A program made the translations under genes and the position numbers. Of a stretch of 64,000 bases of DNA, positions 4,722 through 25,949 are shown piece after piece (position 1 is the first letter of the stretch; the number at the start of each line of letters is the position of its first letter). The stretch covers positions 6,759,948 through 6,823,947 of the forward strand of contig CAWAIF010000003.1 in the NCBI GenBank assembly GCA_963782055.1, written 5' to 3'. This stretch comes from an uncultured delta proteobacterium (lineage in GTDB: Bacteria > Myxococcota_A > Polyangia > Polyangiales > Polyangiaceae). The notes under the pieces are model-generated. The model worked only from the letters and a program-made list of their open reading frames with translations, ran no database searches and was not told the DNA's origin.

Positions 4722-6746
<2,025 letters not shown>

Positions 6747-7089: not shown

Positions 7090-7111
7090 CCCGGAAATGG
7101 GTGGAGGCGCT
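7090..7111. repeat. Distal direct repeat (att copy B) of the ssrA 3' end: GTGGAGGCGCTGGGAGTCGAAC
   Basis: 22/22 nt identical to the tmRNA 3' end at 25574-25595 (minus-strand gene), no CCA. Identity stops after ...GTCGAAC. Confidence 0.55.
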
Positions 7112-7517
7112 GGGAGTCGAACTGTGGACGCGGACGTTTGCCAGGCCGGCGATGTCGCTCGTCTTTCACGCGGAAGCGTTCGATTCCCTTCGCCTTTCCC
7201 GCGTCGCGGGTCTCCACGCGGTTCGACGCCGGTCGACATGGATCGACCAGGGTCGTGGAGACATTCTGGAAACGTGTACTGTGCACGCATTCTCCGGCAC
7301 TCCACCGCACGGAAACCGCCGAAGAGGTGTAGGCTGAGCCCATGGCGTGTCCTCGGTCGTCGCGGTGTCGCAAGCGCGAATGCGGCGCCCCGTGATGAGC
7401 GACAATTGTTCCTGCAGGTCGACGACAACTATTCCTGCAGGTCGGTCGCCGTCCTGACGGCACGTGCGAGGCTGCGGTCCGGTGCTGCGGGCCGGCCCCG
7501 GGGCTCCAGGAGCTCCG

Positions 7518-9005
7518 ATGGTCACGGACGAGCAGGTCAGGCTGTTGAGGAAGAAGATGTCCGAAGGAAAGACGATCGCGTCCGCCGCGGCGGCAGCGGG
7601 GCTCTGCGAGCGCAGCGCCTACACCTGGAAGCAGGGGGCGCTGCCGAGCGAGAGCAAGGAGCCACGGGCTTGGCGCACGCGCACCGACCCGTTCGCGGGG
7701 GTCTGGGACTCCGAGATCACCCCGCTGCTCGCATCCGACGAGCACGGTGTGCTGGAGGGGACGACGGTGCTGGCGGAGCTGCGCCGACGCCACGGTGAGC
7801 AGTACGGCCCCTCGCTCCTGCGCACGTTGCAGCGGCGCATGCACGAGTGGCGTGCCCTGCACGGCCCGGGCAAGGAGGTGATGTTCGAGCAGCGGCACGA
7901 GGCCGGACGCGAGGGCTCGTTCGACTTCACCGACGCCTCCGAGCTCGGCGTCACCATCGCCGGCGAGGCGTTCCCGCACCTGTTCTTCCAGCTCGTGCTG
8001 AGCTTCAGCAAGTGGCGCTGGGTCGGGCTCGCGTTCTCCGAGACCTTCGAAGCGCTCGTGCGCGGGCTCCAGGGCGCGCTCTGGGAACTCGGCGGCGTCC
8101 CGCGCGTCTGGCGCAGCGACAACCTCTCGGCCGCGACGCACCAGATCCCCGGCGGGGGACGTGAGCTCAATCGCCGCTTCGCCGACGTCCTCGACCACTA
8201 CGGCGCGAAGTCGACGCGGATCGAGCCCGGGGAGTCTCACCAAAATGGCGTCGCCGAGAAGGCCCACGACGTGCTGAAGTCGGCGCTGCGCCAGGAGCTG
8301 GTTGTGCGCGGGAGCCGCGACTTCCCCTCGGTCGAGGCGTACATGGAGCTCGTCGAGAAGGTCCGCGGCGGGATCAACGACGGCAAGTCCGCGGCGCTGC
8401 TGGCCGAGGAGCGAGAGCGCCTTCTCCCGCTCCCGCGCACGCGGCTGCCCGAGTACACGAAGTACACCGCGACGGTGCGGCAGTGGAGCACGATCCACTT
8501 CGCTCACCGTGTCTACTCGGTGCCCTCGCGGCTCATCGGCTGCGAGGTCGAGGTCCGGCAGTATCCCGACCTCGTCGAGGTCTACTACCGCGACCGCACC
8601 AAGCCGACCGCCACGATGCCGCGCATCCGCGGAGACCGCTACCACCAGGTCGACTACCGGCACGTCATCTGGTCGCTGGTGCGCAAGCCGGGCGCGTTCG
8701 CGCGCTACCGTTTCCGCGAGGAGCTGTTCCCCTCGCTCGTCTTCCGTCGCGCTTACGACGCGCTCGTCGAGGCGCATGGCGACCGCGCCGACGTCGAGTA
8801 CGTGCGCATCCTTCACCTCGCCGCGAGCACGATGCAGGCCGACGTCGAGAAGGTCCTGCAGGCCCTGCTCGCGCGCGGCGAGAGGCCGGACTTCATCACG
8901 GTCAAGGCGCTCGCCGCGCCCGAAAGCCCCACGATCCCCGTCGTGCACATCCCGCCGCCAGACCTCTCCGTCTACGACCGTCTGATCGGGGGCGAAGCAT
9001 CATGA
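7518..9005 (+). CDS. istA: IS21-family transposase IstA (HTH + DDE integrase core)
   Basis: MVTDEQVRLLRKKMSEGKTIAS..., core ...EAFPHLFFQLVLSFSKWRWV...RVWRSDNLSAATHQ...GESHQNGVAEKAH. AGGAG Shine-Dalgarno 7 nt upstream of ATG 7518. Stop TGA 9003-9005 overlaps istB ATG (ATGA). Confidence 0.85.
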   Translation: MVTDEQVRLLRKKMSEGKTIASAAAAAGLCERSAYTWKQGALPSESKEPRAWRTRTDPFAGVWDSEITPLLASDEHGVLEGTTVLAELRRRHGEQYGPSLLRTLQRRMHEWRALHGPGKEVMFEQRHEAGREGSFDFTDASELGVTIAGEAFPHLFFQLVLSFSKWRWVGLAFSETFEALVRGLQGALWELGGVPRVWRSDNLSAATHQIPGGGRELNRRFADVLDHYGAKSTRIEPGESHQNGVAEKAHDVLKSALRQELVVRGSRDFPSVEAYMELVEKVRGGINDGKSAALLAEERERLLPLPRTRLPEYTKYTATVRQWSTIHFAHRVYSVPSRLIGCEVEVRQYPDLVEVYYRDRTKPTATMPRIRGDRYHQVDYRHVIWSLVRKPGAFARYRFREELFPSLVFRRAYDALVEAHGDRADVEYVRILHLAASTMQADVEKVLQALLARGERPDFITVKALAAPESPTIPVVHIPPPDLSVYDRLIGGEAS

Positions 9006-9781
9006 CCGCCTTCACGCTGGACATGGGCACCCGCCTGCGCGAGCTGTGCGCGGGCTTCAGGCTTCCGACCTTCGCGACCGAGGTGGTCCGTCGCCTCACC
9101 GACGCGGGTCACGAGGCCGCACTGCCGACCCTGCTCGAGGTCCTCGAGGCCGAGGCCGACGAGCGCGGACAGCGTCGTACCGGGCGGCTCCTCAAGGCCT
9201 CGCGCTTGCCCCCCGGCAAGACGCTCGACACACTCGACCGCGCCCGGCTCCCGCGCGCCGTCCTCGCGAAACTCGACGAGCTCGCCACCGGCGCCTTCCT
9301 CGACCGCGCGCACAACGTCCTCTGCTTCGGCCTGCCCGGACGCGGCAAGACCCACGCCGCAGCCGCGCTCGGCCACGCGCTCGCGGGGCGAGGCCACTCC
9401 GTCCTCTTCGCGCCCACCTTCCGCCTCGTGCAGGAGCTGCTCGCAGCCAAGCGCGACCTCGACCTGCCGCGTGCCCTGCGCCGCCTCGATGCCTTCGAGC
9501 TCTTGATCCTCGACGACATCGGCTACGTCCAGCAGAGCGCCGACGAGGTCGAGGTTCTCTTCACCTTGATGGCCGAGCGCTACGAGCGTCGCTCCATCCT
9601 CATCACGAGCAACCTCGTCTTCGGCGAGTGGGATCGGATCTTCAAGAATCCCATGACCACCGCCGCCGCCATCGATCGCCTCGTGCACCACTCGGCGATC
9701 CTGGAATTCTCAGGACGCAGCAAGCGTGCCGACGACGCCGAGTCCCGCTCGAAGAAGGGACCCTCCGAGGCGACCACGTGA
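9002..9781 (+). CDS. istB: IS21-family ATP-binding helper protein IstB
   Basis: Walker A GLPGRGKTH, Walker B LLILDDIGY, ...SILITSN. ATGA overlap with istA. Confidence 0.85.
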   Translation: MTAFTLDMGTRLRELCAGFRLPTFATEVVRRLTDAGHEAALPTLLEVLEAEADERGQRRTGRLLKASRLPPGKTLDTLDRARLPRAVLAKLDELATGAFLDRAHNVLCFGLPGRGKTHAAAALGHALAGRGHSVLFAPTFRLVQELLAAKRDLDLPRALRRLDAFELLILDDIGYVQQSADEVEVLFTLMAERYERRSILITSNLVFGEWDRIFKNPMTTAAAIDRLVHHSAILEFSGRSKRADDAESRSKKGPSEATT

Positions 9782-10434
9782 CGACAACTACCGAGGGCCA
9801 GCGACAACTACGCGACGACGACAACTACACGAGGCACGAACCATGAACCTGGCGACCACCTGCAAGAATAGTTGTCGCCACCATGCAGGGATAGTTGATG
9901 TCCATCAGGCGCCTCCTCGTCTCCTCGTCAGCTCGCGTCGTCTTGTAGCTCCGTCACCCGTGTAGCTTGCTCGTCACATCGTCGCGCCGGGACGCTCGAC
10001 GTCTAGCACCTGGTCGGTCACCGCGACGAACCCTCTCGAGCCCCACAGCAGAAACACCCAGGTTGTGACTGACGGATCATCCGCGCTCGCGAGCCAATAC
10101 TCGAATGAGCCCGGCCACGAACCATGGCTCGTGAGTGTTGGTTGAAACGCGCGAACGAGGTGCAGCGGCATCATCGCGACGTCGATTGGCGTATCGTTTG
10201 GCAGTCGCGAGCCAAATTCCTTCCAATACAGACCGCAGACCCATTTCTGGCTCCCCCGCCGAATCCGTGGGTTGACGTGAAGCGGATCGCTCGGCGCTCG
10301 TCACGGGGCTCGCATCGCGGGAGCGTGTGGGCGTCCCGCCCGCGAGCCTCGCGCCGAGCGCCGGTCGTTGGGGCTGGAAGGGAAGGATGCATCGTGCAAG
10401 GAAGACGGCATCTAACCTCCAACCCCCTCGCACG

Positions 10435-11691
10435 ATGCACCTTCAATCTATCCTGCGCCGGCTGCAGCCGCAGCCCGGATTCGTCTACGACAAGATCACC
10501 TGGGCCGGGACGCCCACGCGGCCAGCGCTGCACGTCCACGTTCGACCTCGCCGCGGGTCCCTTGCCGTGTGCTCGCACTGCTACCGGAAGCGGCGCGGCT
10601 ACGACCACGGGCCGCCGCGCCTGTTCACCTTCGTGCCGCTCTGGGGCATCGCGGTGTTGTTCGTCTATGCGATGCGCCGCGTGGACTGTCCGCGTTGCGG
10701 CGTTACGGTGGAGCTGGTGCCCTGGGCCTCCGGCAAGAGCCAGGCGACGCACGCGTTCGTGTGGTTCGTCGCGAGCTGGGCGCGGGTGCTCTCGTGGACG
10801 GAGGTGGCGCGCCGCTTCCACTCGAGCTGGGACACCGTCTTCCGCTGCGTCGAGCACGCGGTACAGTGGGGCCTCGAGCATCGCAGCCTCGATGGCATCC
10901 GGTCCATCGGCGTCGACGAGCTGGCCTGGAAGAAGGGGCAGAAGTACCTCACCGTCGTCTACCAGCTCGACCACGGCTGCCGCCGCCTGCTCCACATCGC
11001 CCGCGACCGCACCGCCGCGAGCTTCCATTCCTTCTTCGACATGCTCGGCGAGGAGCGCACCAAGGCTATCGCCTTCGTGGCCAGCGACATGTGGCGTGCC
11101 TTCCTCAGCGTCGTGCAGGCCCGCTGCTCCGTCGTCCTCCACGTGCTCGACCGCTTCCACGTCGCCAAGCTCCTCGGCGAGGCCGTCGACACCGTGCGGC
11201 GCGACGAGGTCCGCGCCCTGCGCGCCACCGGACGCCACCCCCTGCTCACCAAGACCCGCTGGCTCCTGCTCAAGCGGCCCAAGAACCTCCGGCGTGGCGA
11301 GCGCCTCCGGCTGCGCGAGCTCGTCCGCATCAACCTTCGCTCCGTCCGTGCCTACCTGCTCAAGGAGCAGTTCCAGCACTTCTGGACCTACACCTCCGTC
11401 GCCGGGGCCGGGCGCTTCCTCGACGGCTGGACCACCATGGCCTTGCGGTCCCGCCTCGCGCCCTTTGCGAAGTTCGCGCGCACCCTCCGGAGCCACCGAC
11501 GCGAGCTGCTCAACTGGTTCCTCGCCCGAGGCGAGTTCGCCGCGGGCGCCACCGAGGGATTCAACAACAAGGCGCGAGTTACGACCCGAAAGGCGTACGG
11601 CTTCCGCAGCCCAAGGCACGCCGAAATCGCTCTGTATCATGCGCTTGGTGCCCTACCCGAGCCGCCTTGGCTCACCCACAGATTCTGCTGA
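10435..11691 (+). CDS. ISL3-family transposase
   Basis: zf-ISL3-like CSHCYRKRRGYDHG...CPRCG, DDE_Tnp_ISL3-like core (IGVDELAWKKGQKYLTVVYQLDHG..., ...RKAYGFRS). The ORF track's upstream extension to 10327 is probably leader. The 3' end overlaps the convergent HNH-like gene by 39 nt. Confidence 0.75.
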   Translation: MHLQSILRRLQPQPGFVYDKITWAGTPTRPALHVHVRPRRGSLAVCSHCYRKRRGYDHGPPRLFTFVPLWGIAVLFVYAMRRVDCPRCGVTVELVPWASGKSQATHAFVWFVASWARVLSWTEVARRFHSSWDTVFRCVEHAVQWGLEHRSLDGIRSIGVDELAWKKGQKYLTVVYQLDHGCRRLLHIARDRTAASFHSFFDMLGEERTKAIAFVASDMWRAFLSVVQARCSVVLHVLDRFHVAKLLGEAVDTVRRDEVRALRATGRHPLLTKTRWLLLKRPKNLRRGERLRLRELVRINLRSVRAYLLKEQFQHFWTYTSVAGAGRFLDGWTTMALRSRLAPFAKFARTLRSHRRELLNWFLARGEFAAGATEGFNNKARVTTRKAYGFRSPRHAEIALYHALGALPEPPWLTHRFC

Positions 11692-12117
11692 GGAGGCCCA
11701 TTTCTTCAGCACACGATCGATCCGCGGCCATTCGATTTTCTGCGTTAGGCGTCGACCAAGGTGAAGACCATCCGCTGAACGAAGATCGACCACCTCGAAG
11801 CCACGCTCGATGGATCGTCGGAGGCCATAATCTTTCCTCAAACCACGCATCGCCGTCGGGTAGATACGCTGGCCCGTTGCGGACAGTACGGTCTCGCTCA
11901 GGCTCAACAAGCCACGAAGGTAGTCCTCGTCCTTCTTCGGACCCTCATTGCATGGCCGACAGCTTGGAACGATGAGCTTGTCCAAGTCGCTCGGCCGCGG
12001 CTCGGGGAAGAACTGACGTCCGACGCAATGCTCTTGATCACGCGCAGCGCCCGAGAGACTTGTGCCGCAGTACGTGCACACAATCGACGTCGTGGATGCG
12101 GTCAACGCGCCTTTCAT
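11653..12117 (-). CDS. Small HNH-like (zinc-ribbon betabetaalpha-Me) nuclease-domain protein, 154 aa; third gene of the coupled operon
   Basis: MKGALTASTTSIVCTYCGTSLSGAARDQEHCVGRQFFPEPRPSDLDKLIVPSCRPCNEGPKKDE. CxxCG ... EH ... CxxCN spacing fits the HNH fold. ATG 12117-12115 overlaps the TGA of the DUF4238 gene (ATGA read on minus strand, tcat at 12114-12117). The Arg-rich 242-aa N-terminal extension in the ORF track (to 12381) overlaps the DUF4238 gene in another frame and is rejected. Confidence 0.6.
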   Translation of the reverse strand: MKGALTASTTSIVCTYCGTSLSGAARDQEHCVGRQFFPEPRPSDLDKLIVPSCRPCNEGPKKDEDYLRGLLSLSETVLSATGQRIYPTAMRGLRKDYGLRRSIERGFEVVDLRSADGLHLGRRLTQKIEWPRIDRVLKKWASSAESVGEPRRLG

Positions 12118-13280
12118 TTGCGTTCGTGCGAAGCACCCTCTGCAGGCCGCGCCTTCGCCGCCGCGGCGACCTGTTGCTCGAGGAAATCTCCGTACTCGTG
12201 CGCAAACGCCAACAGCGTCGGATTTCGGACCGGAACGGCCGGACCGTCGTAGTCCGCGTACGAGTGGCCGTCGATCACGCGCGCGAACGACAGCTTCCCG
12301 CCGATGCGCACCTCGGTCTTCGTCACGACGACGAACTGACTCATCTTCCCGTCCGGGCGCTGCGTGATTGGACTCGTCCACCTCTTATGCTGGTGCATCG
12401 GTGGATGCGCTCGGCGGCGACGCTGCACCAACTCGAGATGCTCGGTCGTCATGCGTGCCAACGAGAAGTACATGCACGTGATCGCGTTCACGGCTTGCAT
12501 CTGGTTCAAGTGCTCGACGTCCTTCGGGCCTGCGCGACAGACCAAACTTTTCCCACCGTACTCGTAGACGCTGGGGTCGAAGACCGCGAGCACAACACTC
12601 GGCGACAGCGGCATGAAGAGCTGCAACCCCTTGAGTGCGATTCCAGTGCTCGTGGGGTAGCGCTTCAGGACGTCATGGTGTTCGGCGAACTGGTTGTACG
12701 CAACCACCGGATGATCGGCGATCACGAATCCTGGCGTGCGGTCGGTCGTGATGAACTTGACGGCGAGGTCGTAAAACAGTGGCGTACTCTTGGCGGCTTG
12801 CCAGATCGCTTCCCCTTGCGGCTCGGTGTAGCCGATCTTCACGAGATCGACGTCCTCGGGTGTGACCTCGGACTTCTTGTTGAGCGCGATCGTGCCCTTC
12901 ATCGCCGGCTTCAACATGGAGTCGACGAAAGCGTTCAGCCGTTCAGCTGCTCCCTTGGTGCGCGCGAGCTGGTAGGCCATGAAGAACCGAAGCGGATCAA
13001 TCGCTTCCTCGGTGAGGCTCTCGAGATGTTCCCGCGAGAGATCGCCGAGCAGGCGAGAGACCTTCGCCTCCTCGTCAGCGAATGATTTCTCCATGATGTT
13101 GTCGGCGCCGTAGAAGTAGTCCGCGTAGCACTGCTGCTTGAGTGGCGCGTTGTCGATGCGCTTTCCGTCCTCGAGGACGATGAGCGAGATTCGATGTCCG
13201 TCGGCCGAGAACTTCCGCAACACGAACCGTGGCACATAGTGCTGCCGCTTCGTCTCTCCTTTTCGTGCCGTAGTGGTCAT
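12114..13280 (-). CDS. DUF4238-family protein (N-terminal KRQHYVPRFVLRKF motif), 388 aa; second gene of the coupled operon
   Basis: The N-terminal HYVP(Q/R)F motif is the hallmark I associate with Pfam DUF4238. Lower GC (~58%) than surroundings. ATG 13280-13278 overlaps the TGA of the upstream 598-aa gene (tcat at 13277-13280). Confidence 0.75.
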   Translation of the reverse strand: MTTTARKGETKRQHYVPRFVLRKFSADGHRISLIVLEDGKRIDNAPLKQQCYADYFYGADNIMEKSFADEEAKVSRLLGDLSREHLESLTEEAIDPLRFFMAYQLARTKGAAERLNAFVDSMLKPAMKGTIALNKKSEVTPEDVDLVKIGYTEPQGEAIWQAAKSTPLFYDLAVKFITTDRTPGFVIADHPVVAYNQFAEHHDVLKRYPTSTGIALKGLQLFMPLSPSVVLAVFDPSVYEYGGKSLVCRAGPKDVEHLNQMQAVNAITCMYFSLARMTTEHLELVQRRRRAHPPMHQHKRWTSPITQRPDGKMSQFVVVTKTEVRIGGKLSFARVIDGHSYADYDGPAVPVRNPTLLAFAHEYGDFLEQQVAAAAKARPAEGASHERK

Positions 13281-15073
13281 TTCGGAGCCTCGGGTGTTGA
13301 TTTCGCTTCATGTGGCGGCGGCTGCGTCGCGACGAGCGCGAACAACACGCAGAGCCGTAGCGCCAACCACCAGACGTACGCGGCGGTCGTGGACCGACAT
13401 TGGTCGTCGTCCAGCAACCCGTGAGCTTCGAGATGGCGAAGGTTCGACCCGAATCGTTCGATGAGGAGCCCGCGAAGGTCGAACACGACGTCTTCGCCAA
13501 AGATCTGCTTCACGAGCTCGAGGCCGAGGAGGTGATCGAGTTGGTGGCCGTCCTGGATTCCCTCGCTGTCCAAACCGAACCCGCGACCACCATTCTGCTC
13601 GACCACGAATCGGAGTGAGTTCTCGAGTTGAGGCACGAGAAGCGCCGTCGCGAGCATGAAGTCGCCGCGCAGTCCGGCTGCAAGACCGCGCGCAAAGCGA
13701 ACGTCATGCCCCGGCGGAAGGAACGGGCTATGTCGCACGATCTGAGAAAGATCCTCGTCTCGGACGTGGTGCTCTTCGCAGATCGCGCGACGTGCGGGTT
13801 CGAGCAGACACGCGGTGAGATGCTGGAGCATGCGCGCGTGGTCGAACATCAAAGGCTCCAGCGCTTCCTTTTCCGAAAGACCGGGTGCAGGCTGACGAAG
13901 CCCCGTCGTGCGGCCCGTCTTCGCATCCACGACGGACGTCGCGAAGAGGTATCGCATCGGTGATTCGCGCGCGCTGTCCATCACGACCTGCTTGAGCCCG
14001 GCAACGCTGGGAGACCGCGTCAACGTCGCGAGCGCGATGAGAGCGTCGGTCACCGTGGGTTTCCCGCGAACAGCCGCAATCGCTTGCTTGACCTCCTCGG
14101 TGAGGTCGACGCTCGCGCTGTACTCACGAAAATCGCGGACCGATCGCTGCTGATACTCGCGCATCGTCTTCAGGAGCTCCTCGACGCGAGCGGCCTGATT
14201 GCCGACACGGCGGAGGGCTTCGATGGCCTTCTGCATATGCATGGCCGCAACGCCGTTGCCGCCAGCGTTGGCTGTGACGTCCGCAAGCGAGACGAGCGCT
14301 TCCACGCTTGCGATCCGCGCTGCTCGTGCAGCGGGCGCGTCTTTCGCAAGGTCGAACCAACGCGCCGCGATGTTGTACAGCGTTTCAGCTCGCAGTCCGT
14401 CGTGCGCGGCATTGGCGTCCGCGCCGATCGCCATCGCGAGCTTGCCGTACTTCTGAGCATCCCCGAGACGATGTTCGAGCAACAGCTCCATGAGCTTTGC
14501 CGACAGATAAAGCGGGTCCTTGCCTCCGAGCCGATCGAGAAGGAGTTCGATGTGCGCGACGACAGCGGTGAAAGGCGCGTTCCTTTTTCCAAGCGACGCT
14601 GCCAGACGAAGAGCACGCTGAATGCGCCAAAAACATCCGCACCAGTTCGTTGGATCTTCGAGTCGCACAGCGGACTCGAGGTATGCGGTCACCGCGGCTT
14701 CGGCCGCTTTCCGGTCGTGACGTCGAAGCCACAGCACGTCACCGACACGAGCGCGCAACTCCGCGTCGGTGTCCGTCGCGAGCAACGGCACGAGCGAGTC
14801 GAGTTGTTCGCCCGTGAGTGCGTCGATTCGATCGCGAGGTGCCAGCACGTCGTCGCCCTCCTCGCGGAGGAACGGCTCGCAGACGTCGCTCAGGAGAAGC
14901 AGTTCCGCTTTTTGTGTGGCGTCATTGGCGTCGTTTGCCGCGCGCCGGAACCCGACCGCGTACTGGTAACACTCCTTCGGGTTCGCGGCGTCGACGACTT
15001 CGCGCCAAGCAACGGTAGTAGCCTCGGACGGCGCGGTCATGGCGCACCTGCCGACGTCGCAGACCCGGTCCAA
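13277..15073 (-). CDS. Large alpha-helical protein (598 aa) with C-terminal HEPN-like Rx4H motif (ERFGSNLRHLEAHGLL); first gene of the coupled operon
   Basis: Long ORF. C-terminal ...FGEDVVFDLRGLLIERFGSNLRHLEAHG matches the R-x4-6-H HEPN RNase signature with the downstream AHG typical of Abi/HEPN proteins. The rest has no recognisable catalytic motif. Start may be ATG 15073 or the internal MTAPSE at about 15040. Confidence 0.65.
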   Translation of the reverse strand: MDRVCDVGRCAMTAPSEATTVAWREVVDAANPKECYQYAVGFRRAANDANDATQKAELLLLSDVCEPFLREEGDDVLAPRDRIDALTGEQLDSLVPLLATDTDAELRARVGDVLWLRRHDRKAAEAAVTAYLESAVRLEDPTNWCGCFWRIQRALRLAASLGKRNAPFTAVVAHIELLLDRLGGKDPLYLSAKLMELLLEHRLGDAQKYGKLAMAIGADANAAHDGLRAETLYNIAARWFDLAKDAPAARAARIASVEALVSLADVTANAGGNGVAAMHMQKAIEALRRVGNQAARVEELLKTMREYQQRSVRDFREYSASVDLTEEVKQAIAAVRGKPTVTDALIALATLTRSPSVAGLKQVVMDSARESPMRYLFATSVVDAKTGRTTGLRQPAPGLSEKEALEPLMFDHARMLQHLTACLLEPARRAICEEHHVRDEDLSQIVRHSPFLPPGHDVRFARGLAAGLRGDFMLATALLVPQLENSLRFVVEQNGGRGFGLDSEGIQDGHQLDHLLGLELVKQIFGEDVVFDLRGLLIERFGSNLRHLEAHGLLDDDQCRSTTAAYVWWLALRLCVLFALVATQPPPHEAKSTPEAPK

Positions 15074-17415: not shown

Positions 17416-17486
17416 GCTGGTATCCTCCCGCGGTGCGACCCGCCCTCGCTCTGCCCGCGGCCGCCTGCTCGGCGCCGCCGGATCCG

Positions 17487-17990
17487 TCAGGCGGCCCCGA
17501 CCACGGCGTGACGCTCTACGTGCACCAGTACGGCAGCGCAGCGTACACACCGAACGGCGAGACCACGAGCTGGGCCGGGATCTCGTACGTCTACGACCCG
17601 CTCGGGAATCTCCGCCAGGTGCAGTACGCCGATGTCCACGATGGCCTGCGCGAAGGTGGCGTTGTACTGCTCGACGTCGCGCCCCCTGCCAGACCGCTTC
17701 ACGATGGTCCTGGGGCGGTCGAAGACGGCCATCAGGGGCAACCCGCCGAAGGCGACGAAGTGGCGCGCCAGGCAGCGCACGACCGTCTCGACGCGCTCGT
17801 TGTCGACGAGGGAGACGCCGACGAAGCGTCGAGTACTTCAGGCGCGAGGCGAAGAAGACGAAGGTGACGTCGACGTGCCCGAAGTCATGCTGCGAGAGCT
17901 CGCCGGGCAGGCCCTCGAAGCGCACGACGGGGGCAGCGCGGGGTGGGCGGACGCCGGCGACCAGGGCGTAGAAGGCCGACTTGTGGCCCG
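17487..17990 (-). pseudogene. IS21-family IstA fragment (two frames)
   Basis: ...VRFEGLPGELSQHDFGHVDVTFVFFASRLKYS... (compare the RHEAGREGSFDFTDASELGVTIAGEAFPHLFFQLVLSFSKW of the intact copy) and FGGLPLMAVFDRPRTIVKRSG...QYNATFAQAIVDIGV in a second frame. Confidence 0.5.
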
Positions 17991-18085
17991 CGTACCCCGC
18001 CTCGGTCGCGCCCACCACGACCTGCCCTTCTGACTGCGCTCCTCGATTCTCGTGCTCGACGCTCCCTCCATCTTCGTGACCACGC

Positions 18086-18640
18086 TCACTTGGGTGGCCG
18101 CGAGCGCTCCCAGCGCGCGAGGGCGTCAGCCTCGGCGCGACGCACCGTGCGCCAAGCGAGCCCGTACTTGGTCGCGACGTGCGAGAGCGGCATCGAGTAG
18201 GCGTCGAGCGCGAGGTGGTGCTGCAGCCTCGTCGTCTGCCGCTGCTTCGGCTCCGCCCAGGGCAGTCTGTCGGTCGCGTGGGCACCGCAGCGCGGACACT
18301 TCACACGCACGGGCGCGTACTCGATCCGTGCACGCCGGCCGGCCCACGGCAGGTCCTCCCACCGTCGCGTCTTGCGACGCTCGTGGGTGCGGCCCGTCAC
18401 GATCGTCATGCACTGCCCGCAGCGCGGCGACCACCGCCGCACGAGCGACAGCACGAGCACGGCGCCCGCGGGGACATCGAAGCCGGCCACCGACTCGATG
18501 CGCTCCCCCGTCCGCGTCTCCCATCTCGCTTCATGCACGTTGAAACCTCGAAACCCGACAATCTCTGTGAGAATCTCTCGTCGCTGACCCAGCGCGGCGT
18601 GCTCCCGGTTGTTTGCACATCCAAGAGATCGCCACGGCAA
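18086..18640 (-). pseudogene. ISL3-family transposase N-terminal fragment (zf-ISL3 + HTH), truncated after about 184 aa
   Basis: ...WSPRCGQC...VRVKCPRCGAHATDRLPWAEPKQRQTTRLQHHLALDAYSMPLSHVATKYGLAWRTVRR. Same architecture as the intact ISL3 at 10435 but a different sequence. The DDE domain is absent. Confidence 0.6.
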
Positions 18641-18848
18641 TTCGGCCGCGTCGATGGGTCAGCACTCTCTCTACGCGAGGTCGGAAATGCCGCCCCTTTC
18701 ACGCGCTCGATCGGTGGTCACGCCAGCCCCCATTCGGCCGAAAAGCGGGAAAACCGCGCTCAATTCCCCTACGCTCCCGCCCCCAAATCGTGACGCCGAT
18801 ATAGCCCTCGTCACTTGACGCCACCCTGCGTCCGGGTACCTTGATCGG

Positions 18849-20321
18849 ATGCGGCACAATCTCCTTGCTTTTATCGCCTTGGCGCACGCCGCAACGATTG
18901 GCGCTGGCTGTGCGGTCGACGAAGGCAGTGCGGAGTCGCAAGCCGAGCCCTTGTCGGCGGCGGCCGCGGTCCAGACCTACATCGACACCACATTCTATTC
19001 CGATGCCGACATCCAGTATTCCTTCGCCACGACCGCAGGCGAGAAGGTGGACTGCATCGACTTCTACTCGCAGCGGTCGGTGCGCTCGCAGCTCGCGCGA
19101 GGCGCGTGGGTGCCTGACCCCGCCAGCCTGCCCGATCCGCCACCCATGCCGGGTTCCATCCCGAAGCCCCACAAGCCAGCCGGCGCATCCGTCGCGTTCG
19201 ACGGGACACTCGACGCAAACGGCCACGCCCAAAAGTGCCCGGCAGGAACCGTGCCCACCATGCGCCCGACGGTCAAGGCCATCGCGGCGGCTGGGGGCTT
19301 GGACGCCTACCGGAGCCGGCGCCCGCCGCTCCCTATGAAGGATCCGAACCAGGATCCCATTCAGCACGACTGCTACCACCAGTTCTCGCCGGGCCCCGGT
19401 TACGATCACGCTGCTGGCGTGCATATGCCGGTCGGGACCTACTATGGAGCCCTCTCATTCCTTTCGATCAATCAACCATACGTGTACAACACAAGCACTG
19501 AACACAGTCTGTCTGAGATCTGGATACAAACGGGCGATTGTGAGAGCTGGACATCTTATAATGACCCCGACAATTGCACGACTGGTGGCAATGGCGACGC
19601 CGTGCAGTCGCTCGAGGTAGGCTGGATGGTCGGGGACGACAGTCTATGGTCGAATGAACCGCAAGCTCCGCACCTGTTCGTATTCATTACGCAAGACGGA
19701 TATGATACCAAGTGGTGCTTTTCAGGGTCCTCCTACTGTTATACGGATTATCCCTACGGCAACTCCACAGCTGATGCTTGGGTCATTGCGCCCGGCGCGC
19801 CCTTTACCCTAAATCAGTCCCTGGGCCAGTACGTGCAACCGCTCGGGTCAGACCCCGCGGAGATGGCGATCCAGGTATGGAACGGCACCACCCACGGATA
19901 TCCCGCCTGGTTCGTATGGATTGATGGTCAGCTCCTCGGCTGGTATCCGGCCGACACCTTTGCCGGACAGATGCAATCGTCCGCAAGTTACATACAAGCG
20001 GGTGGCGAAGTTTATGACAGTTGGCCCAACAACGCTCACACCACAACACAGTTGGGGACGGGAATCTTTCCCTCCGTGCCACCGCCGGCCCAGACCTACC
20101 AAATGTGCTCGTACCAACGAAACCTCAGCTACATCGACTCTGGAAGCAACTATAATGACATGGCTCTCGGTTTTATTACCACGCCGCCTGCCGAGCTGGA
20201 CGACAATCGTCTGGGGATCTGCGGCTACGACGCGGGCGACTACGGATACGGCCTCGACCTAGGCGACCTGCCATCAGGTTGGGGATCGAGCTTCTCCTTC
20301 GGTGGCAACGAGATATTTTGA
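18849..20321 (+). CDS. Neprosin (DUF239, glutamic peptidase G3)-like secreted lipoprotein with N-terminal activation-peptide region
   Basis: Lipoprotein signal LAFIALAHAATIGAGC. Motifs SLEVGWMVGDD...PHLFVFITQDGYDTKWCF...GYPAWFVWIDGQLLGWYPADTFAG...ASYIQAGGEVY match DUF239 conserved blocks as I recall them (EVGW..., ...GWWL..GYWP..LF, ...GGEV). GC drops to about 50% across the gene. Confidence 0.7.
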   Translation: MRHNLLAFIALAHAATIGAGCAVDEGSAESQAEPLSAAAAVQTYIDTTFYSDADIQYSFATTAGEKVDCIDFYSQRSVRSQLARGAWVPDPASLPDPPPMPGSIPKPHKPAGASVAFDGTLDANGHAQKCPAGTVPTMRPTVKAIAAAGGLDAYRSRRPPLPMKDPNQDPIQHDCYHQFSPGPGYDHAAGVHMPVGTYYGALSFLSINQPYVYNTSTEHSLSEIWIQTGDCESWTSYNDPDNCTTGGNGDAVQSLEVGWMVGDDSLWSNEPQAPHLFVFITQDGYDTKWCFSGSSYCYTDYPYGNSTADAWVIAPGAPFTLNQSLGQYVQPLGSDPAEMAIQVWNGTTHGYPAWFVWIDGQLLGWYPADTFAGQMQSSASYIQAGGEVYDSWPNNAHTTTQLGTGIFPSVPPPAQTYQMCSYQRNLSYIDSGSNYNDMALGFITTPPAELDDNRLGICGYDAGDYGYGLDLGDLPSGWGSSFSFGGNEIF

Positions 20322-20336
20322 GACACAGGATAGCAC

Positions 20337-20666
20337 ATGTCGTATTCCAGCAAGATCATCCCTCCCTCGATGATGGTGTTGGTGTTCTTGGCATCCTCGG
20401 GTTGTAATGCCCAGGTGCTTCCACCGATGCCTGACGCAAGCAACCTCGATGCTGACACCGACGCGGCTGACGGGATGGCCCGCGAAGACGCTCAGCCCGA
20501 GGATGCTGATACCGATGCGCCACTGGAGATCCTTGACGGGGGATGTCCAAAGACTGTGCCATGCAATACGCCGCCCAACGTGGCGTGTAGAAATCGTTGC
20601 GTGTTACTTCACTGTGTGAACGGTCTTTGGAAGATTGTGCCCGACAGCGGCGTGCCTTGCCCATGA
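20337..20666 (+). CDS. Small Cys-rich lipoprotein (109 aa) in the same low-GC islet
   Basis: Signal and lipobox VLVFLASSGC, acidic linker, C-terminal C-x4-C...C-x3-C-x4-C cluster. 13 bp downstream of the neprosin-like gene. Confidence 0.5.
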   Translation: MSYSSKIIPPSMMVLVFLASSGCNAQVLPPMPDASNLDADTDAADGMAREDAQPEDADTDAPLEILDGGCPKTVPCNTPPNVACRNRCVLLHCVNGLWKIVPDSGVPCP

Positions 20667-20899
20667 CGACACGTGTCGTAGTCGCTGATCTCGGGCGATC
20701 ATAACGTCTCGCGAGCATAGGAAAGCCTATGCGCGATCGGTGAGCATAGGAAAGGGTGTAGTTCTCATCGTGACGCCTTCGCCCGCGGTTTTCGCGGTGG
20801 ACTCTGCGGCTTGATCGCGAGGACGTTCGCGAGGACGGTGACGTCGGCGTGAAAGGTCGCCGCGACGAGGGCCCACGCTTTGTCGAAGCATCTCTACGC

Positions 20900-21080
20900 C
20901 GGGGGGAGCGTCGGCAGCAGCACGAGGTACACCGTGTGCGCTTCCCCGTCGGTCAGCGCGGGCGAGCAGGCGCTCGATGCGGCGGCGCGCTCTGGCGAGG
21001 ACCTCGGCGACCTCGGTGCCGCGCAGGTGGCCGAGGGCGCGGAAGCGCGGCTCGCCGTCCACCTCGACGTAGCCGGATCC
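20900..21080 (-). pseudogene. Second partial copy of the IS91-family transposase (about 180 bp, near-identical to 16280-16450)
   Basis: Nucleotide repeat seen directly. Encodes GYVEVDGEPRFRALGHLRGTEVAEVLARARRRIERLLARA. Confidence 0.55.
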
Positions 21081-21134
21081 CGACGCTCTATGGACATTCT
21101 GGCGGCAGAGGAGGGGTTGTGTCCCGGAGGTCGA

Positions 21135-22625
21135 GCCATGACCCCGAGGGGCATGGCCAGATCCTTTGGACATAACGTGGCGGAATGATGGAAATAAATC
21201 GGGCGCCTTTCTCGTTGTTCGGTTGCGACACCAACAAGGAGAGGACGCCCGATGACGACGAGAGCTACCCGAGCCACGAGCAGCCGTCCAGACCCGAGCG
21301 AAGAGGCGAGCGCGGTGGAGGAGCAGCTGCAGCGGACCTTCACGCCGGCGGTCATCGACGAGCTTCGGGGCCGCACCGGCTACAACCCGCGGCAGCGGCG
21401 CGCCACCGCGTTCCGCCTGGTGCTCACGGTCGTCGAGGGGTTCCTCGCGGGCCAGACGCTGTCGTTCGAGTCGCTGCGGGCGATCTTCGTGAGGCGCTTC
21501 GGCTTCATGCGCCCGTGCCCGTTCCAGAAGCGGTTCAAGCAGGAGTCGGCGGCGGCGTTCTTCCGCGCGGCGCTCGAGCACCTCGTGGCGTCGGTGACGA
21601 AGGCGGCGGGCCTGGAGCTGAGCGGGCCGCTCGCCCGCTTCGAGGACGTGCGGGTCTACGACGGTACGGGGCAGCGCGTGCCACCGCGCGGGCGCGAGCT
21701 GCTGCCGGGATGCACCAAGGGCAAGGCCGGCACCAAGTGGGTGATGGGCTACAGCATCAAGACCGGCCTGCTCGAGCACGGCGTCTCCGACGCGGAGACC
21801 GCGTCGGAGACGCCGCTGTGGCGGAAGCTGGTCCCGAGCTTCACGCGCGGGGTGCTCTACCTCTTCGACCTCGGCTTTTTCGAGCGCGCTCTGTTCACGC
21901 AGGCGAAGGCTGCCGGCGCGCACGTGCTGATGCGCCTCAAGACCACGGCGAAGGTACGCGTGACCGCGCACATCTCGGAGAACGGCCACACCCCGCTCCA
22001 CAACTGGTCGCTTGGCTACTACCTGCAGAGCGTGTCGCGCAAGCGCGGGACGATCTTCGACCTCGACGTGACGTGGGGCAAGGGCAAGGACACCGTCGCA
22101 TTGCGGCTCGTGGGACTCGCGCACAAGTCGACCGTCATCCGCTGGTACCTGACCACCGTGCCGCGCAGCGTGCTCTCGCCACGGCAGATCATCCAGACCT
22201 ACCGACTCCGCTGGCTGATCGAGCTGCTCTTTCGCGAGCTGAAGCAGACCGCCGACCTCGGCCGCTCCTTCACCGCCGATCCCCACGCGATCAAGGCGCT
22301 CACCTACGGCGCGATGCTCGCCCACGCGCTCGTGCGCTCGGTCAGGATCCAGGCTGCACTCGCGCGCGACGTCCCTCTCGAGCAACTGCGCCCCCTGGCG
22401 ACGTTGCACGTCGTGCGCGCCTACGCGCGGGACCTGGTCGACGCCCTCGTCTCCCTGAGCACCGCCGCGTGGACTGCCGTCGTGACCACCGTGGGCGCGG
22501 CACTCGTCGCTCTGGCACGCGAACGACAACCTTCACGCTCCAGGAAACGAATCGCCCTCAAACTTGGGGCGATCGGTGCTTAAGAGATCGGGCATGCCCC
22601 GAGGGGCCGGGGCAATACATCCAGA
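21135..22625 (+). mobile_element. IS4-family insertion sequence
   Basis: Terminal inverted repeats containing CCCCGAGGGGCATGGCCAGATC (left) and its near-reverse-complement GATCGGGCATGCCCCGAGGGG (right). Encloses the IS4 transposase gene. Confidence 0.6.
21252..22583 (+). CDS. IS4-family (DDE_Tnp_1) transposase
   Basis: 443 aa. ...VLYLFDLGFF..., ...YRLRWLIELLFRELKQ... typical IS4 C-terminal block. Confidence 0.8.
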   Translation: MTTRATRATSSRPDPSEEASAVEEQLQRTFTPAVIDELRGRTGYNPRQRRATAFRLVLTVVEGFLAGQTLSFESLRAIFVRRFGFMRPCPFQKRFKQESAAAFFRAALEHLVASVTKAAGLELSGPLARFEDVRVYDGTGQRVPPRGRELLPGCTKGKAGTKWVMGYSIKTGLLEHGVSDAETASETPLWRKLVPSFTRGVLYLFDLGFFERALFTQAKAAGAHVLMRLKTTAKVRVTAHISENGHTPLHNWSLGYYLQSVSRKRGTIFDLDVTWGKGKDTVALRLVGLAHKSTVIRWYLTTVPRSVLSPRQIIQTYRLRWLIELLFRELKQTADLGRSFTADPHAIKALTYGAMLAHALVRSVRIQAALARDVPLEQLRPLATLHVVRAYARDLVDALVSLSTAAWTAVVTTVGAALVALARERQPSRSRKRIALKLGAIGA

Positions 22626-23262
22626 CCCCAGTCTGCAGGCCGCACCCCCAGTAGTCGCATTCCAACGCGCTATCAAGGTTACATGCCGAGCCAAGCTTCG
22701 GCCGTGGAACGGGGCAGCCAGGCACTGGAGCCTCGCACGACCACTTCATCACGGAACCCCCGTCCGCGCTGTTACCCACCTTGGCGCACCCGCAGAAACC
22801 CTCCGTGTACGAGCACAGCGCCGGGTCCGTCGGAGCACACGCCTGGCCGCGCGGGACGGACGCGAAGTCGATGGCGCACTTCGAGTCGTTGGGCGCGGTA
22901 GGACACGAGGCGTCGGCGACTCCAACGGCCCTTGGAGTCCATGTGCCGGCGTCGTCGCAAACGTAGAGCGTATTGCAAGCCAGGTTCGGATCCTCTCCGT
23001 ACTCGCATACCTTGAGAAGAGACATGCAACTGCCGCCGTCACACCCCCCTCTCGGTGGCACACAAGGTGCCCCAGCTTCAGGCGGACTCGGCGGACAGCT
23101 GAAAGTGCGGGCGTCCACTGAAGCGGAGTCCATCGCAGCTCCGTCATCGCCACGGTCAGCGGCGACATCCATACCCGCATCGTTGCTAGTGGACGACTGG
23201 TTCAAGCAGCCTACAAGCGCCATAGCAGCGGCGAACACCAAGTAGCGGCCCCGAGCAATCAT
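22558..23262 (-). CDS. Cys-rich secreted lipoprotein; 3' end lies inside the IS4 right inverted repeat and is probably altered by the insertion
   Basis: Signal MIARGRYLVFAAAMALVGC. About 20 Cys. The last codons (...GPSGHARSLKHRSPQV) are encoded by IS4 terminal sequence. Confidence 0.5.
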   Translation of the reverse strand: MIARGRYLVFAAAMALVGCLNQSSTSNDAGMDVAADRGDDGAAMDSASVDARTFSCPPSPPEAGAPCVPPRGGCDGGSCMSLLKVCEYGEDPNLACNTLYVCDDAGTWTPRAVGVADASCPTAPNDSKCAIDFASVPRGQACAPTDPALCSYTEGFCGCAKVGNSADGGSVMKWSCEAPVPGCPVPRPKLGSACNLDSALECDYWGCGLQTGVWMYCPGPSGHARSLKHRSPQV

Positions 23263-23451
23263 CTTCCCCTCCGCTCCTACCACGTCGCCAACGAGCTACC
23301 GTTGACCGGCAAGAAACCTGCTGTGAGGTCCGTCCATCCATGCCAACCAAAGTCCCAAATCGCCTGAGAAAACCGACCGTTACTGGTCGGGGCCGACACC
23401 ATCACGCGCTGATCCCCCATGCCAACGGCCGCCGGGCTGCCGACGAAAGGG

Positions 23452-24964
23452 TCTCTGCTTAGCGGCCGGAAGACGGCCCGCGGCCCGGGCGTGACGTCGA
23501 CCGTCGGAGGACTCGCCGGCTAGTGGGCAAAGACAGACGGCGGCGGCTTGCCGTGGAGGTGACTTTCGTACAGCCCGATGACGAAGCCCCGAAGCGGGAG
23601 CCGGCACTTGCGCCGCGTCTGCGTGATGCTCATCCAGTGCGCCAGGGTGGCGCTGCCGGCGGCCGAGCGCGTTCCGCCGGTCATCGCGCGGTGCCGCCCG
23701 TGGGCGCGGATGTCGCGTTCGGTCGCGTTGTTCGTGGCCGGGACGTCGGGGCGGTCGATGAAGAGCGTCACCCCCACCTTGTGTTCGTCGAGGCGCTCCT
23801 GCAGCCGGACGATGTCCGGGAACTCCACGAAGTTGGGGCTGCTGATGAGATGGCCGAGGCGGGTGCGCGCGCCCCTGCGCTGTCCGGGGTCGCCGCTCGC
23901 CGCGGCCTCCTTGCCGGCCACGTAGAATGCAATCAGCCGGTCGCGGAACTCCTCGGTCGCGGCGCACGGGGTGAGCTCGGCGATCTTCTTCGCCTCGCGG
24001 ATGGTGTGCGCACCGCAGTAGGCGTGGGTCCAGCCGTCGTGACTCGTGTACACGCCGTAGAAGTCGGTGCACAGGACTCCTTTGAAGCTCGCGCCGAGCA
24101 TCGACTCGGCGACCCACGCGCCGCGCGACAGCTCGGCGCGGAAGACCGAGACGCGGTCGGTGCGCATCAGCCACATCCAACCCGGCACGCCGTCCTGTCG
24201 ATGGCCGCTCTCGTCGAGGCCCGCCACGGGCGATGCGCGCACCGCGTCGACCAGCTCGTCGTAGCTCGGCGCCGAGCGGCGTCGCAATCGGTCGAACATC
24301 TGCGCCAGGCCGCCCGTCGTGATCGAGATGCCGAGCCACTGTCCGAGGAACGCACTGATCTTGCCCAGCGGCATGTCGCGCTCGAAGCGCAGGTCCAGCG
24401 CCATCGCCTGCACGTTGGGGCCGAACGACACCGCGGCGACGCTCTTGCCCGCCGCCGGCGCGCCCGGCAGCTTCGCGACCACGCGCTTGTGGCACACCTC
24501 GCAGCTGCCGACGTGCGCCACGTGATGCGTCTGCCGCGGCTGCACCACTGGGATGTCGGTGACGACTGTGCTGTCCGTCTCGCCCGTCGCCACGACTGCC
24601 CCGCCACAGCTGCACGTCGCCGGCATCTCGTGCACGACTTCGTCGTCGACCTGGGCCGGTGCGGCGGGCCGCGATCCGACATGGCCCACCTTGCGGCCGC
24701 GCGGCTTGCCCGAGGGCGCCCGCCGACCCTCGGAGCGCGACGTCCGCCGCTTCCCGCGCTCCCGGAACCCGCGCTTCCACTCCTCGATCTCCTTGCGCAG
24801 CTTCGCCAGCTCTTCGCGAAGCGCGGCGTTCTCCTGCTCCAGCTCCTGGATCCGCTGCTCGGGCGTCACGTGATCCGGGATGCTCCCGATCAGGTCCCAT
24901 GGAAAGAACTTCTCGCATCAGGAACGAAGAATGGACCCACAGTGTGCGACACCGCTAAGCAGAC
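23452..24964 (-). mobile_element. IS66-family single-ORF element inserted into an integrase gene
   Basis: Short inverted repeats TCTGCTTAGCGG (23453-23464) and CCGCTAAGCAGA (24950-24961) flank the transposase. Confidence 0.5.
23520..24869 (-). CDS. IS66-family transposase (TnpC-like)
   Basis: N-terminal leucine-zipper (MTPEQRIQELEQENAALREELAKLRKEIEEW), Cys cluster (CSCGG...CEVCHK), DDE core, C-terminal ...HWMSITQTRRKCRLPLRGFVIGLYESHL typical of IS66 TnpC. Confidence 0.8.
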   Translation of the reverse strand: MTPEQRIQELEQENAALREELAKLRKEIEEWKRGFRERGKRRTSRSEGRRAPSGKPRGRKVGHVGSRPAAPAQVDDEVVHEMPATCSCGGAVVATGETDSTVVTDIPVVQPRQTHHVAHVGSCEVCHKRVVAKLPGAPAAGKSVAAVSFGPNVQAMALDLRFERDMPLGKISAFLGQWLGISITTGGLAQMFDRLRRRSAPSYDELVDAVRASPVAGLDESGHRQDGVPGWMWLMRTDRVSVFRAELSRGAWVAESMLGASFKGVLCTDFYGVYTSHDGWTHAYCGAHTIREAKKIAELTPCAATEEFRDRLIAFYVAGKEAAASGDPGQRRGARTRLGHLISSPNFVEFPDIVRLQERLDEHKVGVTLFIDRPDVPATNNATERDIRAHGRHRAMTGGTRSAAGSATLAHWMSITQTRRKCRLPLRGFVIGLYESHLHGKPPPSVFAH

Positions 24965-25114
24965 ACCTGCGACTGCCCCGCGTCGCCCGCGCACCGGCCG
25001 CCGAGGCAACCCCAAACCAGCGGCTTGCCGGTGTAGACACCCGCCTTGTCGGCGACCAGCCGGCCTTGATCGTCGGTGTGGATGGCCGCGCCGTCGCCGT
25101 CGGTGGACCCACTG

Positions 25115-25454
25115 CATCCTCTACGCCGACGAAGGCCGCGAGCTCACCAACAAGGTGGTCCGCAAGTGGCTGGAGCGGGCGCAGCAGGCGGCGGGGCTGA
25201 CGGCGACGGGAGGGCTGCACCAGCTCAGGCACACCTTCTGCTCCGCCCTGGCAGCGACCGGGGCGCCGCCGAAGGCCATCCAGGAGCTGGCCGGGCACCA
25301 GAACCTCTCCACGACGATGCGGTACATGCACCTGTCCCCGGCCTCGCGGGAGAGCGCCATCGGTCTGCTCGATGTCGCCCGCCAGCGGGCCGGGGACCGG
25401 CGCGGCCGTGGAGATATCCTGGAGACGGGCGGGAGGAGGCCCGAAACCCCGTGA
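25115..25454 (+). pseudogene. Tyrosine recombinase (phage-type integrase) C-terminal catalytic fragment; 5' part disrupted by the IS66 element
   Basis: ...LHQLRHTFCSALAATGAPPKAIQELAGHQNLSTTMRYMHLSP... (R-H-R-Y catalytic region, HxLRHT and Y-box). Stop lies 5 nt before att copy A. Confidence 0.65.
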
Positions 25455-25459
25455 AATAG

Positions 25460-25480
25460 TGGTGGAGGCGCTGGGAGTCG
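25460..25480. repeat. Proximal direct repeat (att copy A) of the ssrA 3' end: TGGTGGAGGCGCTGGGAGTCG
   Basis: 21/21 nt identical to 25574-25594, including the CCA-complement. Lies next to the integrase 3' end. Confidence 0.6.
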
Positions 25481-25537
25481 CACGTTGCTGGACGCCGTGC
25501 ACCGGGTCCCCCCCGTGAACGAGTCCAGCAACGTCGA

Positions 25538-25559
25538 CGACCGAGCATCGGCCTGAAGC
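25538..25559 (-). terminator. 9-bp stem hairpin (GCCUGAAGC-GAG-GCUUCAGGC) immediately 3' of tmRNA
   Basis: Inverted repeat seen directly. Sits between ssrA and att copy A. Confidence 0.4.
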
Positions 25560-25573
25560 CTCGCTTCAGGCAG

Positions 25574-25929
25574 TGGTGGAGGCGCTGGGAGTCGAACCCA
25601 GGTCCGAAAACGCATCCCTCCTGCTTCTACGTGCGTAGCCGGTCTATTGAATCGCTCCGCGCCGCGCCAGCCGGCAGGCTCGCCGTAGAGCTATTCACCT
25701 GTTTGATCTCGCCTCGCGCCCGGTGAACCGACGTCCGGCCAGCCAACTTGGTCGCGCCCTTCCCGAGGCGTTGGCGGGCCTCTGGGTTGGACGGCTCTCA
25801 GTGCTTTTTAGGCAGCGAGGGCGATTGCGTTATCGTTCGCAATTGTTTTTTCCGCGCGTTTTTACGTGTACCCGCGGGTCACGGCACGCTGCAAGGACTT
25901 CAGCGTCCCCGTCGAAACCGGTCGCCCCC
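25574..25929 (-). ncRNA. ssrA: tmRNA (SsrA), 356 nt; tag reading frame GCG-AAC-GAU-AAC-GCA-AUC-GCC-CUC-GCU-GCC-UAA = (A)ANDNAIALAA
   Basis: The reverse complement starts GGGGGCGACCGGUUUCGACGGGGAC (canonical tmRNA 5' end) and ends ...GGACCUGGGUUCGACUCCCAGCGCCUCCACCA (T-arm + acceptor + CCA). The acceptor stem pairs 5' GGGGGCG with 3' CGCCUCC, including the G3:U wobble (alanine identity). Tag peptide and stop codon read directly. Confidence 0.92.
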
Positions 25930-25949
25930 TTTCGTTTGCGACCTACCGC

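Follow-up and report, generated by a model that had tools for sequence, protein, structure and literature searches.

Genomic islands that integrate at tRNA or transfer-messenger RNA (tmRNA) genes (collectively tDNAs) have ends marked by the tDNA and a displaced fragment of it; of all targets the tmRNA gene shows the strongest enrichment, and tandem arrays occur (Hudson, Lau & Williams, 2015; PMC4383910). In Dehalococcoides, tandem islands at the tmRNA gene, ssrA, carry 20-bp direct repeats of its 3′ end, with insertion at the T-loop, and some members without integration genes may be fixed or only cis-mobilisable (PMC3146451). Cis-mobilisable elements are flanked by attachment (att) sites and have no integrase; a related integrase can in principle excise them in trans (concept cited in PMC3146451). 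The locus described here lies in a 64,000-nucleotide (nt) stretch of DNA (the window; contig CAWAIF010000003.1, positions 6,759,948 to 6,823,947, assembly GCA_963782055.1) from an uncultured delta proteobacterium placed in the Polyangiaceae. Two direct copies of the 3′ end of its ssrA gene lie downstream of it, with DNA rich in insertion sequences (IS) before the second. It is most probably a degenerate ssrA-integrated island: an integrase would have inserted an element into the ssrA 3′ end, followed by a later second event, IS colonisation and loss of the integrase gene (int).

ARAGORN calls a single tmRNA gene in the window, a one-piece ssrA at 25574-25929 on the minus strand with the tag ANDNAIALAA*, and Rfam model RF00023 aligns to it untruncated over positions 1-374 (179.5 bits, gathering score 47). 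Besides this full-length match it has the other marks of a tmRNA: 5′ GGGGGCG pairs with 3′ CGCCUCC in the acceptor stem, giving the G3:U pair, ACCA follows, and the tag frame ends in a stop. The gene and its strand, the G3:U pair, the tag and the CCA had all been proposed in an earlier reading of these letters (the original prediction), and are borne out by ARAGORN, the sequence and the RF00023 alignment. The last 23-26 nt of the gene would be a regenerated att core.

The 20-mer GGTGGAGGCGCTGGGAGTCG occurs exactly three times in the window, each time on the plus strand (7100-7119, 25461-25480, and 25575-25594 within ssrA), against a chance expectation of ~0.03 matches even with three mismatches tolerated. 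When the copies are aligned, 23 exact nt are common to ssrA and each extra copy. Copy A (25458-25480, plus, identical to 25572-25594) runs from mid T-loop through CCA plus 2 nt, reading CGACU-CCCAG-CGCCUCC-ACCA-CU on the RNA strand, and lies at the integrase-proximal end of the large island; copy B (7100-7122, plus, identical to 25575-25597) lies at its far end and takes in the last base of the 5′ T-stem, the T-loop, the 3′ T-stem, the acceptor strand and ACC (G-UUCGACU-CCCAG-CGCCUCC-ACC). Both identity blocks start in or at the T-loop and extend to the ssrA 3′ end, and both copies are direct and on the 3′ side of the gene, 93 bp and 18.4 kb downstream. An intact ssrA with two exact 23-nt 3′ fragments on the same strand is the configuration that the tDNA-fragment criterion of the Islander database describes, and copy B would be the displaced fragment marking the far end of the island. 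Three direct copies had been predicted and all three are exact, but copy B had been placed at 7090-7111, 10 nt off. A short-word BLAST search of the 64 kb found no further degenerate copy of the ssrA 3′ region.

Where ssrA and copy A have ...CCUCCACCA, copy B has ...CCUCCACC-C-AU (7098-7103), so that the displaced fragment departs from them at the terminal A of CCA, through either an additional C or an A-to-C change. There is also a likeness between the left flanks of copies B (7077-7099) and A (25436-25459), GCCCCG-GAAAT-G vs. ACCCCGTGAAATAG, which could be chance, or could mean that the attP arm of the island resembled the native ssrA downstream region.

Beside copy A, and convergent with ssrA, is the 3′ remnant of a tyrosine integrase gene (25113-25454, plus; Pfam PF00589), comprising its last ~100 codons (...ILYADEGRELTNKVVRKWLERAQQAAGLTATGGLHQLRHTFCS...GHQNLSTTMRYMHLSP...GDILETGGRRPETP*, with the TGA at 25452-25454). 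Copy A, beginning at 25458, lies 5 nt past this stop, as had been predicted. PF00589 (Phage_integrase) covers the remnant at profile positions 95-170 of 172 only (E = 7e-17): positions 1-94, including the first Arg, are missing, while HxxR and the catalytic Tyr (RYMH) remain. It fails as a functional recombinase, being without the complete catalytic set R..K..HxxR..H/W..Y. A homologous integrase from Myxococcus virescens (~370 amino acids (aa), in two open reading frames (ORFs)) aligns with the window at 25116-25427 only, over its last ~100 residues, and with the full-length homologue as query the N-terminal part (~265 codons) was not detectable anywhere in the window. No second integrase was found inside the island. 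NCBIfam models for Xer and integron integrases score far under their cut-offs on the remnant, whose relatives in the protein collection are mostly from Myxococcota.

The original prediction had an IS66 element inserted into int. The right inverted repeat of the IS66-family element ends at 24967, and 148 bp separate it from the first integrase-homologous codon; most of this gap (24968-25112, 145 bp) gave no coding signal and no homology. Because the 5′ part of int is absent from the window, the gap intervenes and IS66 has no target-site duplication, int is described here as a 3′ relic, and a split by IS66 is not shown. The island would be unable to excise on its own, and the labels “immobilised” and “IS sink” previously given to it are reasonable inferences.

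The same layout is found beside tRNA genes. Two homologous integrases have 56-58% identity to the remnant (C-terminal domain). In M. virescens (L009), int converges with a tRNA-Pro gene and stops 23 nt short of its 3′ end, and a 25-nt direct copy of the tRNA-Pro 3′ end, from CCA to T-loop, lies 5.2 kb off on the integrase-distal side; in Anaeromyxobacter oryzae (L010), 8 nt lie between tRNA-Lys and the end of an integrase fragment of 132 aa, and the 23-nt direct repeat is found at a distance of 4.3 kb. Int, copy A and copy B are arranged in this way too, which ties this integrase family to att sites spanning the T-loop and 3′ end. These islands resemble the present one in having a convergent int near the RNA gene (stop 8-23 nt away), a 23-25-nt repeat reaching into the T-loop, and an int that is often decayed: split in M. 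virescens, and the 132-aa fragment in A. oryzae, both genomes being complete. They differ in targeting tRNA genes instead of ssrA, in their size of 4-5 kb, and in having no IS load. Going by such sequences, decayed tDNA islands may be common in Myxococcota. Many of the database homologues (P0002-P0120) are 100-220-aa C-terminal pieces, and many are on ~1-kb contigs, possibly cut by the contig end; the family has a conserved C-terminal GDI(L/V)ET motif.

Compared with the described systems, the locus shares with Islander islands the intact tmRNA gene, the direct displaced 3′ fragment and a tyrosine integrase, here a remnant, at one end, and attP sites whose identity block reaches the T-stem and T-loop, as here, form the commonest class in Islander (PMC4383910). 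It departs from them in its ~100-codon int remnant, in being 58% IS-derived, and in a “second member” of 93 bp that has no integrase and falls outside the tandem-array rule. Like the Dehalococcoides ssrA arrays, it has several direct 3′-end repeats downstream of ssrA and insertion at the T-loop, and integrase-less members occur among those arrays too; however, the arrays have the serine recombinase DsiB and rdhA cargo, whereas the present locus has a tyrosine integrase and a myxobacterium-like host. With cis-mobilisable elements it has in common intact attL/attR-type repeats and no working integrase, but the locus gave no sign of mobility or of a helper integrase.

The island interval (7123-25457; 18,335 bp, of which ~10.6 kb, or 58%, is IS-derived) also differs from the backbone in composition, a further Islander criterion. 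Its GC content is 0.670, vs. 0.712 in both flanks; the non-IS cargo is at 0.60-0.64, vs. 0.714 ± 0.019 in 2-kb windows of backbone; and third-position GC is ~0.7-0.8 in cargo genes and 0.91-0.96 in backbone genes. All transposase homology found lies within 7384-24967 (the island's IS families were searched against the whole window with tblastn, and the larger flanking ORFs with Pfam), and ten large ORFs right of ssrA gave no transposase match in Pfam. At the left border is a hybrid histidine kinase gene (4722-6746, minus; Pfam), next to a response regulator and a second hybrid kinase (1443-4720). This cluster is syntenic in a distant Myxococcota metagenome-assembled genome (MAG; L018), at 49-61% identity, and is therefore taken as backbone. 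Homologues of the left-flank histidine kinases reach at most 62% identity, and no ssrA was found beside the kinase cluster in L018, nor was there one in L017. The repeats, the abutting remnant, the layout in M. virescens and A. oryzae, and the GC content all support the core of the original prediction, a tyrosine-integrase insertion at the ssrA 3′ end that produced an island of ~18 kb.

Such an island probably arose as follows. The attP of a mobile element, holding a copy of the last ~23 nt of ssrA, would recombine with the segment of the gene from T-loop to 3′ end. This would regenerate an intact ssrA and displace copy B, its original 3′ fragment, by 18.3 kb along with the hairpin that used to lie downstream, while int would come to lie at the ssrA-proximal end, convergent with ssrA and with 5 nt between its stop and the core. 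Recombination of this core a second time would insert 93 bp and a further core, separating ssrA from the integrase end and giving copy A. Later, ~265 int codons would have been lost, and at least six IS-derived segments would have colonised the island, coming to 58% of its length; what remained would be an int-less, att-flanked relic with the PDC-S39/DUF4238 genes, a neprosin-like protein and a lipoprotein. How many integration events there were, and in what order, is what we infer from this layout; which of the two came first cannot be told, because the final order is the same whether insertion was into the regenerated gene or the displaced fragment.

Hairpins are found right after the CCA or core at the present ssrA, at copy B, and at the ssrA genes of relatives. 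The one beyond copy B (7077-7096, minus) has an 8-bp stem, 3 nt after the copy; two Polyangiales MAGs (L003 and L004) have a hairpin in the same position, directly after the CCA of ssrA. Because hairpins sit likewise after ssrA in relatives, the sequence left of copy B is read as the probable ancestral ssrA downstream region, and its hairpin would be the original one. The spacer between ssrA and copy A (25481-25573, minus) is 93 bp long and not 90, as previously given; the predicted hairpin with a 9-bp stem is there (25551-25571, 2 nt after the CCA), but there is also a second, longer one (~25477-25538), with a perfect inverted repeat of 12 bp (25482-25493 / 25523-25534) as its basis. The spacer is predicted to fold at −65.9 kcal/mol (z = −5.27). 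It has no coding content and no detectable homology, scans with its hairpins were empty, and it is not a copy of any other sequence within the window.

Fresh integrations, as seen in the homologues, have int abutting the intact RNA gene, and so a further event would be needed to add the 93 bp with one core. The spacer would then be an arm remaining from a second element, now supplying the hairpin behind ssrA. A frame in it (“TLLDAVHRV...*”, compared with “..AIxLLD..” in the family) was considered as the C-terminal tail of a second integrase and rejected, there being no conserved GDI(L/V)ET. It is a long shot that the 114-bp unit formed by the two-hairpin spacer and a core is a miniature cassette, self-contained and flanked by att sites, that integrases targeting the T-loop move in trans and that would restore the ssrA hairpin removed by an integrase-convergent island.

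The 114-bp unit might instead have come from local duplication or secondary-site recombination of the same island, after a single integration. The lack of coding content and of detectable homology in the spacer would suit this, as would the 2 extra nt (CT) past CCA that the cores of copy A and ssrA share. However, the 93 bp match nothing else in the window, so that a simple tandem duplication does not account for them, and the direct abutment of int and intact tDNA in the homologues argues that new DNA was inserted here; a single integration is considered unlikely. A different question is whether the 18 kb arrived together. They may have accumulated, from a small island of ~5-8 kb delivered by the integrase and enlarged by IS and by IS91/ISCR-type or composite-transposon capture, or from at least two islands that have lost their internal att copies. 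Pointing in this direction are the 10.6 kb of IS-derived DNA, a mosaic bounded by 50-nt inverted repeats in which a truncated rsmI lies beside an IS91/ISCR-like fragment, the differing GC of the cargo blocks (0.60 to 0.64), and the 4-5 kb islands of the homologous integrases. With no internal att copies and no second integrase in the island, such accretion is given somewhat less than an even chance, and it would extend the account of an ssrA-integrated island, not exclude it.

The probability that the 20-23-nt copies are a dispersed repeat or chance match, with no connection to site-specific integration, seems close to nil, even with 64 kb of a 7.0-Mb genome looked at. They match the ssrA terminus exactly, in one orientation and all on its 3′ side, where 0.03 matches would be expected, and an integrase stop lies 5 nt from copy A. 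Among 185,579 species representatives, six loci carry the 23-mer, five of them confirmed tmRNA gene ends and the sixth at a contig end; all six are distant, and none has a related integrase or a common gene order.

Several observations weigh against the degenerate ssrA-integrated island as set out above. No empty site turned up in the genome and metagenome scans, which returned only distant ssrA genes or one probably chimeric contig, and the sole other sample with this DNA (Logan ERR11571143, 99.94% identical) keeps the junction of IS66, int and ssrA. The integrase gene that Islander asks for is present as a remnant, a weak match to that requirement, and the count of 23-mer copies covers 64 kb of the 7.0 Mb. 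The 93-bp “second element” has no gene content, its origin thus being conjecture, and a unit that carries a fragment but no gene is not a tandem array as Islander defines it. Finally, the GC of 0.73 and the rsmI fragment of the mosaic mean that part of the 18 kb need not have come with the integrase.

The Logan sequence (L007/L008) corresponds to 24939-29598 of the window, with three mismatches over 4660 bp; this independent assembly ends 29 nt into the right end of IS66, a break that suggests several IS66 copies in that genome. Looking up the window proteins by exact match gave nothing, or only the Logan contig with the same structure. A metagenome scan with the tag region recovered one contig, L016 (Ga0222742_1001100), with an ssrA at ~2340-2630 that has the identical tag-coding 30-mer and 78% overall identity and is missing the last ~60 nt. 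Next to this ssrA come 2.3 kb of DNA, AT-rich and eukaryote-like, and the contig was set aside as a relative, being probably a chimeric assembly. Scanning viral contigs with the core brought up junctions of prophage and ssrA from unrelated organisms, besides one chance match that falls within an ORF of 1380 aa. In one viral contig (L013, IMGVR_UViG_3300044448_007918), an 81-nt match to the tmRNA model (7453-7533, 62.8 bits) consists of tRNA-like ends only and includes the same 20-nt core at its 3′ end, and ARAGORN does not call it as a tmRNA gene.

Integration at tmRNA gene 3′ ends is a well-known event. New here are the host lineage and an unusually large IS load, and no principle is added; the present understanding of such integration is unchanged. 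The gain is mainly for annotation, in that exact borders of foreign DNA (7123-25457) are fixed in a poorly sampled, 71% GC, myxobacterium-like genome. In addition, ssrA appears as an integration site in this lineage for an integrase family whose targets in other genomes are tRNA-Pro and tRNA-Lys, and the relic documents an IS pile-up together with a candidate defence gene, PDC-S39.

The IS families named in the original prediction (IS21, ISL3, IS91 fragments, IS4 and IS66) were each found by Pfam or NCBIfam. From the integrase-far end, an arm of 64% GC (7123-7383) between copy B and the first IS is followed by an IS21-family element (7384-9916, plus) with istA (7464-9005), istB (9002-9781) and 59-nt multi-repeat terminal inverted repeats; it has the genes expected of the family (NCBIfam IS21 178 bits, cut-off 160; IstB 224, cut-off 200; Pfam IstB). 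An intact ISL3-family transposase gene follows (10327-11691, plus, 454 aa; Pfam DDE_Tnp_ISL3, E = 2e-66), assigned by NF033550 at 266 bits vs. a cut-off of 180, with no clear terminal inverted repeats around it. The IS4-family element (21142-22606, plus) has 17-nt imperfect inverted repeats and a 443-aa transposase (21252-22583; Pfam DDE_Tnp_1), which scores 164 bits with NF033592 vs. a cut-off of 115.

IS66 elements are characterised by a DDE transposase, terminal inverted repeats and an 8-bp target-site duplication, and classical members also have tnpA and tnpB. The element here (23450-24967, minus) has 16-bp terminal inverted repeats and a single 449-aa ORF (23520-24869; Pfam DDE_Tnp_IS66; NF033517 219 bits vs. 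a cut-off of 180); no target-site duplication was found for it, and no tnpA or tnpB. Its single-ORF layout fits the ISBst12 subgroup.

The mosaic mentioned above (15352-18797, minus, 3.4 kb) is bounded by 50-nt inverted repeats (15352-15401 / 18748-18797) that are 80% complementary. It includes the N-terminus of an ISL3 transposase (18086-18658, minus) and an IS21 transposase fragment (17487-17837, minus), both identified with Pfam/NCBIfam; a 5′-truncated rsmI (~16660-17415, plus) without ~30 N-terminal codons (TIGR00096 178.9 bits, cut-off 167.9); and a frameshifted, N-truncated IS91/ISCR-like transposase (15543 to ~16650, minus), the junction being read from the translations. It looks like a housekeeping-gene fragment captured inside an IS shell, and its GC is higher than in the rest of the island, host-like or above. 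A second IS91 fragment (20953-21075, minus, 123 nt) is 93% identical to 16319-16441. For IS91 there are only fragments, under the NCBIfam cut-off, and these are therefore referred to as IS91-derived and not as an element.

The low-GC cargo includes a cluster of three ORFs (11653-15073, minus, 62% GC). The largest encodes a DUF7380/DUF4209 protein (13277-15073, minus; Pfam) that matches the PADLOC defence candidate PDC-S39 (E = 4e-163), and the next a DUF4238 protein (12114-13280, minus; Pfam); the third is a small CxxC..H..CxxC ORF (11653 to ~12120, minus), its end clipped by ISL3. On this sequence evidence, the cluster may be a multi-gene defence candidate. The original prediction of a low-GC cargo operon and a neprosin-like islet stands as to the GC (0.60-0.64), DUF4238 and the neprosin domain, but not as to two of its names: the “HEPN-like” protein is DUF7380 plus DUF4209 in Pfam and PDC-S39 in PADLOC, and “HNH”, for the small Cys-motif ORF, was dropped, there being no Pfam match to support it. 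Relatives of the DUF4209 protein are scattered over plasmids of many phyla; PDC-S39 relatives were not found in viral contigs, and the island has no match to plasmids at the DNA level.

The neprosin-like protein (18849-20321, plus, 490 aa; Pfam PF03080, E = 1.5e-17) is encoded in an islet of 60% GC (18798-20952), and its match to the activation-peptide model is below cut-off (23.8 bits, gathering score 39.2). A Cys-rich putative lipoprotein of 241 aa (22558-23283, minus), with no Pfam or PADLOC match, overlaps or is clipped at its 3′ end by the right end of IS4.

To the right of ssrA, a 698-aa ORF (26128-28224, minus) was discarded as a high-GC artefact that fuses two true genes, both on the minus strand: one for a 283-aa lipoprotein with a cytochrome-c motif (26128-26979), which has no homologues at E ≤ 1e-10, and one of 394 aa (27051-28235). 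Further out in the backbone, 5 kb from ssrA, the protein encoded at 30896-33013 (plus) has a vault repeat domain match under the Pfam cut-off (27.3 bits vs. 28.8) and a major-vault-protein shoulder domain (PF11978, E = 4e-27).

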